A stretch of 27,946 nucleotides of DNA from a virus: UHGV virus genome UHGV-0178950. One strand, 5' to 3'. Numbering within the stretch: position 1 is the stretch's first letter; each line of letters starts with the position of its first letter. Positions 7,727-12,775 of this stretch are shown in pieces. Made by a program: the position numbers and the translations under genes. Under the pieces are notes generated by a model that saw only the letters and a program-made list of their open reading frames with translations, was not told the origin of the DNA and ran no database searches.

Positions 7727-8560
7727 ATGAATATTACACAAGATAACTTAGATATTTTCACGGGGTCACATGTTGAAGTGTCGATCTCTAACCAGATAGA
7801 CAATCAGGTCGACTTTTTCGATCCTAGCTTTAGTTCCATCGAGAACGTTGCAGCATTTCCTACGCTAACCGAATCCACAGAGATAGAAACTCTGGAAGAG
7901 TACGATCAGGACGCTACGGGGAAACTTGCTGGTTATCGTAGACTGGAACCGACAACACTCACATTAAACCGTGTTCTTGACGATGAACATCAAGCAATGT
8001 TGATGAAAGCGGTAGAGGATAAAACACCTTTACGCTTCCGTATGTTCTATGTTGTGAACTCTGGCTATAGTGCTGCTAACACTGGTTACTATGTCATCTA
8101 TGATGCTTACGTCACATCACATAAAACCCGTGGTAGTGATAACAAAGCTGTAACACTGGAATTTAAACTTGAACCAGATGGCGGGATTCTGGCAAGGGGT
8201 ATTGCTACCGAAGGTAAGATCTTGCGTCAGGGTGATTTTGGTATCGGTGCTGGTGTACACCCATTTACAGGGGGTATAGATGACACTGCATTAGCCGGAA
8301 ACCGTTTCGTAACCTATAAGGGAACTGCTAGCGGTAATCCATATTCAACCGACACAGCATTAATTCACCTTCAAGCTAATGAGCATGGCGCATGGCAATT
8401 AACCTGTAATACTTCTGGCGCACCACGTTTACGCGTCCGAAATATTCAGGAAAACGGTCGCTCTGAATGGATCAAGGTATATTCCTCCAATGAGAAACCG
8501 ACACCTAGCGAAATTGGCGCAGTGGCTAAGACTGATAGAATCGACTTCGGTGAGTATTAA
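7727..8560 (+). CDS. Tail-tube-like structural protein (paralog of the 12299 gene) with a C-terminal extension carrying a fibre-like KPTPxEIGA box
   Basis: 277 aa; N-terminal half aligns by eye with the 158-aa protein (GKL..LTL...H..L.KA.ED.T); C-terminus NEKPTPSEIGAVAKTDRIDFGEY matches a box inside the fibre gene. Confidence 0.55.
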   Translation: MNITQDNLDIFTGSHVEVSISNQIDNQVDFFDPSFSSIENVAAFPTLTESTEIETLEEYDQDATGKLAGYRRLEPTTLTLNRVLDDEHQAMLMKAVEDKTPLRFRMFYVVNSGYSAANTGYYVIYDAYVTSHKTRGSDNKAVTLEFKLEPDGGILARGIATEGKILRQGDFGIGAGVHPFTGGIDDTALAGNRFVTYKGTASGNPYSTDTALIHLQANEHGAWQLTCNTSGAPRLRVRNIQENGRSEWIKVYSSNEKPTPSEIGAVAKTDRIDFGEY

Positions 8561-8588
8561 GATTGCTTACCTAAATAAAACATGACGC

Positions 8589-8620
8589 GGGGAGGTTAAC
8601 GCCTCCCTTATTCCTGTTTT
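8589..8620 (+). terminator. Terminator-like hairpin between the 277-aa gene and the fibre gene
   Basis: GGGAGG-ttaacg-CCTCCC followed by a T-rich run (ttattcctgtttt). Confidence 0.4.
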
Positions 8621-8638
8621 ATAGTGAGGTGATTCTAG

Positions 8639-11600
8639 ATGCGATCAATCCAATTTAAACGCACACAAACGGCTGGTAAAAAACCAACGCCGGAACAATT
8701 ATCACAGGGTGAATTGGCTATTAACCTTGCTGATCACGTTCTGTATACCAAAGATAAAAATAACGCAGTAGTTCAAATCTCTGTTTCTCCAGAAAAACAT
8801 GCTGAACTTAACACGAAAGTAGACCAGAATAAAACCAACACTGACCGTGTTATTGCTTCCAACAAACAAGAGGCCGCTAATAATCTGGCTAGTGCTAAAG
8901 CTGAACTGAATCAGACTATTACCACGAAAGATACAGCGACCAATAAGCGCATTGATGCTACCAACACCACTGTTAGTAACTTAACCCAGACAGTTACGGC
9001 AAATAAAACCGATGCCGACACTAAGATCAATAACCTTACGGGGACCGTATCTGCGAATAAGACCGCAATTGAAAGAACCGTTGCCGCAAACAAATCTGAT
9101 GCAGATAGCAAACATGCAGCTTTAACGAAAACGGTCACTGACAATAACACCGCGATTAACAACAAGGTTAATACCACTAACACCAACGTTAGCAACTTAA
9201 CTAAAACTGTTACTGCAAATAAAACCGATGCAGATAACAAAATTTCTAGCTTAACTAGCACGGTTGCAGCTAACAAGACAGCGATCGAAAAGACTGTTTC
9301 CGACAATAAGAAAGACGCGGATACTAAGATTACCAATCTTACTGGCACTGTTAATAGCAACCATACCGCAATTAACAACAAGGTAGACCAGAATAAATCT
9401 TCTACTGATGCCGCAATTGCAGCCGCTAACAAACGAATTGATGGTATTGAAGGTAGCAATGATGCTCTTTACATCAAGAAGAATACCAATACTAAGCATG
9501 GTGGGTATCTGTTAAGCAAGACAGCTAACTATCTGGAAGACCAGACATCACGAGATCTTAACTACTTTGGTGCTTTCCGTACCAATGGTCAAGATGGACT
9601 CATGGATCTAACTCTTAATGTTCCTCATTCTGCCGGTAAAGCGCACGGTCGCGGATTTACTTTCCGTTATGCGTCTGGTGGATCTCGTGTTGAAACCTAT
9701 GGTTTTGATAGAGAAGGACAGAAGAACTTTAGCTATAAGATGTATCACGAAGGTGATAAGCCGACTCCTGGCGAGATTGGCGCATACACCAAAGCCGAAG
9801 TTGATAAGATGTTTGTTAAAAACGTCGTTATGTCTGTTCCCAATTCTAGCGAAAACGTATCTGCATATTTCAAATTGGCAACCGCAACAATTCCACAAAA
9901 CGGGCGTAGTGTGTTTTTCCGTATTCATGGTGGTAATGGTTACAACGTTACGGCATATGATCAGGTTGACGTAGTAGAAATTCTTCTGCGTAGTGGTAAC
10001 GATAGACCTAAAGGTCTTAACGTAATTGCATACCGTAGAAATACAAACAAAGATTTTGAGGTATTTGCTGTCAATACTTCCGGTGATAACTATGATATCT
10101 ACGTGAAATATCAGCGTTATACCGATAACGTTATTGTCGAATATGGGAAATCTGTTTATGTAAGTTTGACGGTTTATGATACGCCGGAAGCCACGTTAAT
10201 TAAACCTTCCGTTGGTGTTATCGGTGGTCGCAACGTAACTCTTTTTAATACTGAAAATAAACGTGGTGTGTTAAGTTTTGATGATAACACACAAAACAGC
10301 TATGACATTGTTCATCTAAGTAATGATAAAGGTACTGGACGGAAATATATTCGTAAATTCCGTAGCAACTATAACGAAATGGTTTGGCATGAAACCGTTC
10401 AGGGTGCTGTATATCGTCTTGCTACTGGTGCTACAGATTCTACAGAAGTTATTAGAATTGATTCTAATAGTGCAATACCGGGTAATTATAAAGGATATGT
10501 AATTACTGGTAAAATGGAATTGCACGGTAGTGGTAATGCGATGACTTTACATCGACAGACTGGTCAAGCTGCATATATGGCGTGGTGGGATCGTCGTGAT
10601 GGTAAAAACCAACGTAGTGGTTATATCGGTCATGCGGATGGTACTAGTGATGGTTTTGTGTGGCGTAATGATGTTGGTGCTAACTCATTTGATTTGGAAG
10701 GTAGTGGACAAGTAAATTTGACTACAGGAAAAACAAAAATTGTATATACCAATGGTCAATATTATTCCGCTAACGCTGATGCATTCCGTATGATTTACGG
10801 TAAGTATGGTGCATTCTGGCGAAATGATGGTGGTAAAGTTTATCTGTTGTCTACTGCCGAAAATGATAGATTTGGTGGTTGGAATACATATCGACCTTTT
10901 ATCTACGATCTTACTTCCGGTAACGTTCAATTAGGTGGTGATGGAAACGAAGATGTATTAACTCTAGAACGCGCAAGCAAGGCCGCTCGATTCTCTGGCA
11001 ACGCTTACATCAAAGGTCAACATTTAACATTTGATGCTGGTGCTGGACAATCCCGCGATTACTTCCGGTTTAACCATTGGGGCGATAGTAATAACGCTCG
11101 CGATAACATCCTACAGATTGAAGACAGTCAGGGTGCACACTTTACCACTGAACGCGCTATGGGTACTGGCAATATCACAGCACGTTTTAAAGGCTTTGTG
11201 CGTGTAGAATCCGGTGAGATTGCCTTTGATGCTAATCGTGGATCTGCGTCTCAATTTACCTTACATACATGGGGTAACGAGCAACGCAAACAGGTTTTTG
11301 AATGTAAGGATGCTACTAGTTATCATTGGTATACCGAACGTACAAACGGTGGAACTGGTCCTATCCTGTTCTCTGTTGCTGGTACATTAAAAACTGCGAG
11401 CAATATACAGGTTGGCGGTGCTGATATTGAGTTTCGTCGCAGTGGTAATAAGCATTTATGGTTTAGAGATCCGAACGGTTTAGAATTAGGTTTGATGTAC
11501 TGCGATGATGCTGGTGTTATCCGCTTCCGTGGTCAGAAACAAGGTCAAACTTGGAAACTTGCTGATAAAATGATTCATCTTGAGGCGGGGACTGTCGGCG

Positions 11601-12241: not shown

Positions 12242-12248
12242 TAAAAGT

Positions 12249-12267
12249 CGGGGGACTAGTTCCCCCG
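12249..12267 (+). terminator. Hairpin after the fibre gene
   Basis: CGGGGGA-ctagt-TCCCCCG; weak T-tract, so terminator status uncertain. Confidence 0.4.
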
Positions 12268-12298
12268 TTATAAACAATTTTAATTAAGGGGTAATTCT

Positions 12299-12775
12299 AT
12301 GTCTCAGCAATTTAAAGATATTTTTACTGGTGGTCTGGTAAGTATGTTCTATCACGCCGATACCACTAACACCGATCTTGCACATGAAAGCTATGAAGAA
12401 ATTAAAGAGTGTGCTGGTTTTCCTGAAACTGGTATCGAGCGCGGCACTGTAGAAGTTAAATCCTTCTCTTCTCAGTACAACCGTAAGCTGGTAGGTAAAC
12501 TGAATGTTCCTGATCTGACTCTGACCGTTAACTACATTCCAGGTGATGCTACTCACGCTAAACTGGATAAGGCTGCCGAAGATGGTACGCGTATTCAGAT
12601 TAAGATTGAATATTATGTTGATGCTGGTAAGCAGACTGGTATTCGCACCGCTTTCAACGGCTTTATCTCTAAAGCTGCTATGCAGGGTGGCGACGAAGAA
12701 GTTGTAACCAAAGAATATACTTTTGCGGTTGATGGTGCTCCGATCAAACAGGAAGTGTTTACCACTGGCGGATGA
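12299..12775 (+). CDS. Abundant virion protein, candidate major tail tube protein, 158 aa
   Basis: Strong optimal codon bias as in the capsid domain; AAGGGGT Shine-Dalgarno; sits upstream of the G/T chaperones and tape measure; paralogous to the N-terminal half of the 7727 gene; a decoration protein is an alternative. Confidence 0.55.
   Translation: MSQQFKDIFTGGLVSMFYHADTTNTDLAHESYEEIKECAGFPETGIERGTVEVKSFSSQYNRKLVGKLNVPDLTLTVNYIPGDATHAKLDKAAEDGTRIQIKIEYYVDAGKQTGIRTAFNGFISKAAMQGGDEEVVTKEYTFAVDGAPIKQEVFTTGG

Follow-up and report, generated by a model that had tools for sequence, protein, structure and literature searches.

The window considered here is the whole 27,946-nucleotide stretch of virus genome UHGV-0178950, which is a lambda-like siphophage prophage of Escherichia coli. 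On its plus strand, the genes follow one another in the order gpA-type terminase, a 164-amino-acid (aa) open reading frame (ORF), lambda-family portal, protease-capsid fusion, a 96-aa stopper-like protein, a 140-aa ORF, a 277-aa protein, a 1200-aa fiber, a 158-aa protein, a gp38-like adhesin, two tail chaperone genes, the tape measure, a pb9-like distal tail protein (Dit), a hub protein, a DUF6950 protein, and a J-like central fiber. The subject of this analysis is the 277-aa protein. A preliminary description, made by eye from the sequence, had regarded it as a paralog of the abundant 158-aa tube-like protein and as a possible low-copy tube ring that anchors the fibers. The evidence presented below indicates that it is probably a specialized paralog of the tube protein, forming a ring in the tail tube and holding the adjacent 1200-aa fiber by means of a C-terminal stub; for this reason, it is referred to as the anchor. 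The two paralogous genes do flank the fiber, since the 1200-aa fiber gene (8639-12241) stands between them. The parts of the three genes, together with the hairpin that follows them, are listed here by window position.

7727..8212, plus strand: anchor tube-fold domain (aa 1-162), paralog of the major tube protein
8213..8338, plus strand: anchor invariant Gly-rich segment (aa 163-204, R.GDFGIGAG..G..D...L.GNRF)
8354..8560, plus strand: anchor gp36-type junction module (aa 210-277, ending in ...KPTPSEIGAVAKTDRIDFGEY-COOH), with similarity to RB49 gp36
8639..8791, plus strand: fiber N-terminal joint region (aa 1-51, IQFKRTQTAGKKPTPEQLSQGELAINLADHVLYTKD), 47% identical to RB49 gp37 aa 4-54
8792..9505, plus strand: fiber insert of ~240 aa (aa 52-289), coiled-coil-like, with repeats visible in the translation
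9506..12241, plus strand: fiber gp37-like shaft, tip, and S74 intramolecular chaperone (aa 290-1200), with similarity to RB49 gp37
12299..12775, plus strand: major tail tube protein, 158 aa (PHROG 158, Pfam TTP_11/12, codon adaptation index [CAI] 0.583)
12906..12930, plus strand: terminator-like hairpin 3′ of the tube gene, near-identical to the hairpin after the capsid gene (6964-6985)

The paired peptides on which the preliminary description had based its alignment were located at aa 59-108 of the 277-aa protein and at aa 60-105 of the 158-aa protein, with the ORF coordinates correct, and the paralogy of the 158-aa protein with the N-terminal half of the 277-aa protein was borne out by BLASTP (28% identity over 162 aa, E 8e-16). 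The alignment spans the entire 158-aa protein with only six gap positions. When the two family alignments were compared with hhalign, a probability of 99% was obtained (E 5e-18, columns 4-166 against columns 2-158), and the reciprocal matches of the family hidden Markov models between the two proteins were at 7e-19 and 8e-20. Furthermore, residues G13, F44, P45, and L92 of the 277-aa protein coincide with invariant residues of the tube protein. Profile searches against tail tube families matched both proteins to PHROG 158, "major tail protein," at 6.6e-9 for the 277-aa protein and 1.3e-21 for the 158-aa protein. The latter also matched the lambda-like tail tube protein (TTP) families of Pfam (PF16460/PF16461), with TTP_11 at 1.3e-5, just below the curated cut-off, and a Pfam scan of the 277-aa protein matched no family.

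Searches of PDB sequences with both proteins and both family profiles matched nothing relevant, and therefore the fold was tested by modeling. In an AlphaFold monomer model of the 277-aa protein, for which 24 homologs were aligned, aa 13-160 had predicted local distance difference test (pLDDT) scores of ~80-93, compared to poor scores (<50) for aa 163-204 and modest ones for aa 205-275. The N-terminal domain of this model has the tail-tube fold, as the preliminary description had anticipated. That the 158-aa protein should have the same fold follows from its homology and from the TTP family matches. It is very improbable that the tube-like domain stays outside the tube, as a peripheral adaptor or a fiber assembly factor, because it has about the length of a tube protein with only six gap positions in the alignment, because it is always and only encoded together with a fiber and a plain tube protein, and because a separate Dit and hub are present.

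The two paralogs appear to differ in abundance. CAI values were computed with the Sharp-Li E. coli weights and used as a proxy for expression; the 158-aa gene scored 0.583 and the capsid part of the major capsid protein gene scored 0.592, compared to 0.305 for the 277-aa gene. This difference agrees with the ordinary codon usage previously noticed in the longer paralog and places it among the minor genes, which range from 0.20 to 0.40 (for example, 0.306 for the tail terminator, 0.365 for the portal, and 0.375 for the J-like protein). In addition, the 158-aa gene and the capsid gene each have a near-identical strong terminator hairpin at the 3′ side. These expression proxies, CAI and the terminator hairpins, argue that the 158-aa protein is the abundant tube subunit and the 277-aa protein a minor one; by CAI, the character of a major, high-copy tube subunit belongs to the former and not to the latter. 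Under the reverse assignment, the major tube protein would be the 277-aa protein, carrying a decoration as lambda gpV does, and the 158-aa protein would be an accessory. The gene of the 277-aa protein is indeed in the usual slot of a tube gene, right after the tail terminator, and C-terminal decoration domains are frequent in tube proteins. However, with a CAI of 0.31 against 0.58, with a 158-aa gene that lies ahead of the tail chaperone genes and shares the strong terminator hairpin of the capsid gene, and with homologs of the 277-aa protein in relatives that are whole fibers of 900-1500 aa, the probability of this assignment is negligible.

Two further identities were considered for the 277-aa protein. 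Its gene stands where lambda has gpU, but a role as the tail terminator was rejected because the 140-aa ORF upstream has the terminator fold. Sequence-level searches with this ORF gave no identification, and it is by its modeled fold that it is recognized as a canonical tail terminator. A role as the Dit was dismissed because a separate pb9-like Dit is encoded downstream; the DTP-pb9_B-dom family that this Dit matches was also matched by syntenic genes of relatives, in locus L066 and, weakly, in loci L077 and L078. Since the tail terminator and the Dit are encoded separately, the 277-aa paralog would be an additional tube-fold component. The two genes are located as follows.

7295..7717, plus strand: 140-aa tail terminator protein (by modeled fold), directly upstream of the anchor
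16645..17241, plus strand: T5 pb9-like distal tail protein (Dit), with a weak Pfam DTP-pb9_B-dom match; candidate lower neighbor of the anchor ring

The extra C-terminal part of the 277-aa protein (aa ~163-277), which the preliminary description had pointed out, is real and conserved among homologs. Sequence comparisons divide the whole protein into three parts: the tube domain, then a conserved Gly-rich segment, and finally a gp36-type junction. In the Gly-rich segment, residues G169, D170, G172, G174, G176, G182, D185, L189, G191, N192, and R193 are invariant in the 24 homologs, and the motif is retained in relatives in which the anchor is fused to a whole fiber. The last 68 aa of the anchor align end to end with the last 67 aa of RB49 gp36 (aa 430-496; BLASTP 32% identity, E 1e-5), and the two proteins share the C-terminal ending ...KPTP.(E/D)(I/V)GAV....IDFG(E/T)(Y/F). 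A comparison of the family profile with RB49 gp36 by hhalign gave a probability of 90% over the last 30 aa (E 1.5e-6). When 50,697 phage records were searched by tblastn with this segment, 78 of them matched with at least 80% coverage, and the full-length matches listed were only to the C-terminal end of gene 36 in RB49-like phages. Judged by these alignments, RB49-type gp36 is the only gp36 demonstrably related to the end-piece of the anchor.

The gene next to the anchor encodes the matching partner. Apart from its N-terminal joint region, the fiber shares 75% aa identity with RB49 gp37 over aa 290-1200 and ~80% nucleotide identity with the gp37 genes of Krischvirus, and it matches the Pfam families Gp34_trimer (E 1.9e-37) and Peptidase_S74 (E 8.8e-14). 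The insert at aa 52-289 is without a counterpart in RB49 gp37 by pairwise alignment; it is made of degenerate repeats (NKTDAD.KI..LT.TV.ANKTAIE) and is probably a coiled coil. In T4, trimeric gp36 binds the N-terminal region of gp37 (PMC3004832). The anchor gene lies directly upstream of the gp37 homolog, as gene 36 does in T-even phages, and binding of the anchor to this gp37 homolog is predicted. Thus, because the anchor ends in a gp36-type junction and the next gene is a gp37 homolog, there is a concrete, homology-based mechanism by which the fiber could be held. No homologs of gp34 or gp35 were found in the window by Pfam and PHROG scans, and the N-terminal 160 aa of the anchor are the tube domain.

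Relatives of the anchor provide a second line of evidence. First, in phage DCP80, the tube domain and the module form the N terminus of a 698-aa fiber-like protein (32% identity over aa 9-266, E 2e-44). This protein has the same C-terminal end-piece and is followed by a fiber with the same N-terminal motif (46% identity between aa 1-51 of the window fiber and the N terminus of the DCP80 distal fiber) and then by a plain tube protein. Second, a profile search of 1.84 billion cluster representatives gave 289 relatives. When length classes were counted on the best 149 of these, 90 were proteins of 709-1563 aa in which an N-terminal tube domain is continued by a long fiber; the remaining classes comprised 23 proteins of 271-700 aa and 13 plain tube proteins. 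Seven fusions scanned against Pfam end in an S74 chaperone or in "Phage_tail_C_2" or, as with P0126, carry a T4 gp36 domain, and four fusions viewed in their context (Serratia, Rouxiella, and two metagenomic contigs) lie between a tail-terminator-sized ORF and a plain tube protein of 151-156 aa. Third, in 61 IMG/VR loci, wherever the downstream DNA suffices, an anchor of 277-583 aa is followed by a fiber, and downstream of the fiber there are zero to three accessory genes and then a plain tube protein. The fibers of these loci begin with (K/R)FKRT..G.KPT...L..GE(I/L)AINL.D..(I/L)YTK, a motif found in the first gene after the anchor in every relative, and the gp36-type end-piece also closes the longer anchors. 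Hafniaceae loci combine the same 446-aa anchor with different distal fibers of 685 and 810 aa. Finally, the order of tail terminator, fusion or anchor, fiber and accessory genes (where present), plain tube protein, chaperones, and tape measure was the same in all of the ~65 loci examined.

In a tree of the tube domains, the plain tube proteins group into a single clade, the fused domains fall into two others, and the tube domains that reside in the same genome are always 21-27% identical. The low identity of the co-resident pairs and the separate clade of plain tube proteins mean that the duplication is old and that both copies have been kept. The window type resembles a fused fiber that has been split and to which an RB49-type gp36C-gp37 cassette has become attached. 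The old divergence also bears on an alternative in which the 277-aa protein copolymerizes sparsely with the 158-aa protein along the tube, leaving fibers scattered over the tail, comparable to the frameshift-extended tube proteins of SPP1 and lactococcal phages. The full tube fold, kept with almost no insertions or deletions relative to the tube protein, would fit with this, as would the match of G13, F44, P45, and L92 to invariant tube-protein residues, and low expression would yield substoichiometric incorporation. However, at 21-27% identity the interfaces are probably not interchangeable within a hexamer, and trimeric fibers would require three neighboring anchor subunits. To our knowledge, a scattered-fiber morphology has not been reported for gp37-type fibers. 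Sparse copolymerization is therefore improbable.

The family is common in prophages of the Enterobacterales, where it was found in E. coli, Shigella, Salmonella, Serratia, Proteus, Providencia, Edwardsiella, and Hafniaceae. DNA related to the window is present in 55 of 5,426 complete E. coli genomes. In scans of species-representative genomes, the window-type alignment yielded no relative and the clade-I alignment yielded six Enterobacterales genomes. An alignment that combined the two fused clades proved too divergent to serve in a locus scan. Those members whose source names were looked up are called "hypothetical," "phage tail protein," "tail fiber protein," "tail fiber domain-containing protein," or "pyocin knob domain-containing protein."

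Taken together, gp36/gp37 homology, covalent tube-fiber fusions in relatives, and invariant synteny support a role in fiber anchoring. In the mechanism we propose, the N-terminal 160 aa retain the whole tube fold and would form a ring within the stack of the tail tube. The C-terminal part would be a short fiber stub ending in a T-even gp36-type junction, and this junction, as homology suggests, would bind the gp37-type N terminus of the 1200-aa fiber. Given small amounts of the 277-aa protein, one or a few rings are expected, with the 158-aa protein building the bulk of the tube. A homohexameric ring combined with trimeric fibers would give two fibers per ring, joined through the Gly-rich segment; mixed rings or several rings are also possible. 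A more specific version, in which the fibers are part of the tube itself, with one ring of fiber or fiber-stub N-terminal domains bearing exactly two trimeric fibers, perhaps as neck fibers at the head-proximal end, is conceivable but doubtful. The suggestion in the preliminary description of a low-copy, fiber-anchoring tube ring is strongly supported but not proven: the anchoring function holds by the three lines of evidence just named, low copy number is indicated through codon adaptation only, and the ring is deduced from the fold.

Several points weigh against this proposal. First, the modeled fold alone is the basis for supposing that the protein forms a ring and is built into the tube. 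Second, the C-terminal half of the anchor model is of low confidence (pLDDT <50 to 70). Third, the gp36 similarity is short (68 aa) and has weak database-wide E values (0.04-0.3), and an hhalign comparison with T4 gp36 was not significant, with only the terminal motif (...DFG-x-aromatic) in common. Fourth, a hexamer that carries trimers has a symmetry mismatch, the ring being 6-fold and the fiber 3-fold. Fifth, the anchor gene lies between the tail terminator and tube genes, whereas in T5 the gene for the baseplate tube protein comes after the tube gene, which argues against a distal position of the ring. Finally, searches of the 50,697 phage records with the tube domain of either clade found DCP80 only, so no characterized phage could be used as a reference.

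If the 277-aa protein does form a fiber-holding ring, a distal position, between the first tube ring and the pb9-like Dit, is slightly favored. Such a ring would have the same placement as p140, the baseplate tube protein of T5, and would have to depart from the tube protein on its lower face only. The distal end is favored because all structurally known side-fiber attachments are distal (PMC13455828, PMC12617516, PMC10713586), because no length sensing would be needed, and because many of the fused fibers appear too short to extend from the neck to the tip. The opposite placement, a fiber-bearing tube-fold ring at the head-proximal end directly under the tail terminator, giving rise to neck fibers, draws on the gene order of tail terminator, anchor, fiber, and tube, since siphophage structural genes are often colinear with the particle. 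The distal extra ring of T5 is encoded after the tube gene, on the opposite side from that in the window, and the anchor starts 10 nt past the stop codon of the tail terminator. Nevertheless, besides departing from all the solved attachments, a neck ring would need length sensing against premature capping, and the fiber portions of ~550-900 aa in many fusions would not extend to the tail tip, given a tape measure of 726-810 aa and an estimated length per residue. A head-proximal ring is thus unlikely.

The proposed anchor ring has its nearest known counterparts in the T5/DT57C p140 ring with its p132/LtfC collar and in the Ur-lambda Stf collar domain. In T5/DT57C, p140 (TTMP) has a duplicated tube domain and is a trimer, and the fibers bind via a dodecameric collar of p132/LtfC and a lasso of fiber N termini (PMC10713586). 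In contrast, the anchor has only one tube domain (aa 1-162) and then a non-tube module, and the fiber stub would be a covalent part of the ring protein; its gene precedes the tube gene, whereas the order in T5 is tail terminator, tube gene, and baseplate tube gene. Among the genes of the window scanned against Pfam and PHROGs, none matched a collar family of the p132/LtfC type in these general scans, which were not aimed at collars. The Stf fiber of Ur-lambda forms a ring on the tail with its own N-terminal domain, three domains being linked to one trimeric shaft (PMC12617516). The predicted anchor ring resembles it in that the fiber's own N-terminal domain serves as the tail ring. However, the Stf domain is a six-strand sheet with a helix and encircles the gpV/gpM junction from outside as a 12-mer, whereas the anchor domain has the fold of the tube protein and is related to it as a sequence paralog.

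The predicted joint between anchor and fiber is like the RB49-type gp36-gp37 joint in the C-terminal 68 aa of the anchor, the fiber N terminus, the gene adjacency, and the ~70-80-nt spacer. Unlike the T-even long tail fiber, it has no gp34 or gp35, the tube domain replaces the knee-joining N-terminal part of gp36, and it belongs to a siphophage and not to a myophage baseplate. The immunoglobulin (Ig) domain of lambda gpV, SPP1 gp17.1*, and the MTP extensions of lactococcal phages are cases in which a tube fold carries an outward C-terminal addition serving adsorption. These decorated proteins are the major tube protein or its frameshift product and occur along the whole tube, whereas the anchor is a separate, anciently diverged, and weakly expressed gene tied to a true fiber. 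The tube initiators T4 gp48/gp54 and Pvc5 are parts of contractile-tail baseplates and, unlike the anchor, carry no fibers. No description of a fiber with a tube-fold attachment domain was found in the literature searched, coverage of which was incomplete. A tube-protein paralog acting as the foot of a side fiber would be a mode of fixing fibers to a tail for which no account was found, and dozens of related enterobacterial prophages would have it in common.

Only a few systems (T5/DT57C, Ur-lambda, monocin, and F-pyocin) have a solved mode of side-fiber fixation on noncontractile tails, and each is different. If the proposal is true, a tube-paralog attachment domain would be a further and simple solution and would represent a tube-protein duplication that gained a new function. 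It would also have been overlooked in annotation, where the members are named only as hypothetical or tail fiber proteins. The split form in the window would join a constant anchor to an exchangeable gp37-type fiber via the gp36-type end-piece. This may be a natural plug-in point for changing the host range in phage or tailocin engineering because the anchor is constant and the fiber exchangeable.

Two more genes of the head and tail region are worth describing.

7021..7311, plus strand: 96-aa head-tail joining (stopper-like) protein, with a weak match to Pfam Phage_attach (lambda FII) (E 2.8e-5, below the cut-off)
12950..13456, plus strand: gp38-like tail-fiber adhesin, 168 aa (Pfam Gp38_N, E 3.9e-15; PHROG 1121, E 1.7e-34)

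A protein of similar size occupies the slot of the stopper-like protein in all relatives. The gp38-like adhesin gene lies 3′ of the tube gene, behind the strong terminator hairpin, and its homolog in distant relatives lies between the fiber gene and the tube gene. The RB49-type fiber has its own S74 intramolecular chaperone, and RB49 is without a gene annotated as gp38 beside gp37. In one E. coli subclade (loci L027-L039; for example, L027 14420-15365), three paralogous ORFs of ~100 aa (...WFDIPNGW...) stand between the fiber and tube genes and are possibly fiber-tip accessory or adhesin proteins.

Over this region, the window is 97% identical to a prophage of E. coli strain PI7 (NZ_CP074033) that is inserted in hicB. 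The hicB antitoxin gene of PI7 is split by the prophage into two annotated fragments (locus L002, 5516-5824 and 40957-41076), and the prophage encodes a large serine recombinase (window 24674-26368, minus strand). As for DCP80 (locus L001, PQ671644.1, an Escherichia phage), its 141-kb record is filed under Straboviridae/Gaprivervirus, but positions 1-23000 hold a complete lambda-like siphophage head-tail module, with gpA-type terminase, protease-capsid fusion, tube-fiber fusion, tube protein, and tape measure. This mismatch makes either the assembly of the record or its taxonomy label look doubtful.

The ends of the capsid-fusion gene and the 158-aa tube gene also share an unusual feature. Both genes end in TGA-ACTA, and past the TGA an in-frame stretch of similar sequence stays open for 42 codons in the capsid gene and 41 codons in the tube gene (window 6827-6958 and 12773-12901, respectively). 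Each stretch has an acidic, Pro-rich part followed by ...VTAKATAK and a basic tail and then by TAA and the near-identical terminator hairpins. Among related loci of the E. coli clade, the stretch measures 28-45 codons in the capsid gene (n = 36; plus one 9-codon case, L042) and 36-41 codons in the tube gene (n = 21). Its length changes by multiples of three only, and the other two frames are closed in nearly all loci. This pattern suggests a programmed UGA readthrough that extends both of the most abundant structural proteins. Distant relatives have a TAA stop without a post-stop stretch. In some of them (loci L043, L045-L047, and L060-L062; for example, L045 15503-16261), the plain tube protein is ~252 aa long and carries a fused C-terminal extension of ~100 aa (...ECTVTVTA), which may be the counterpart of the readthrough extension in the window lineage.

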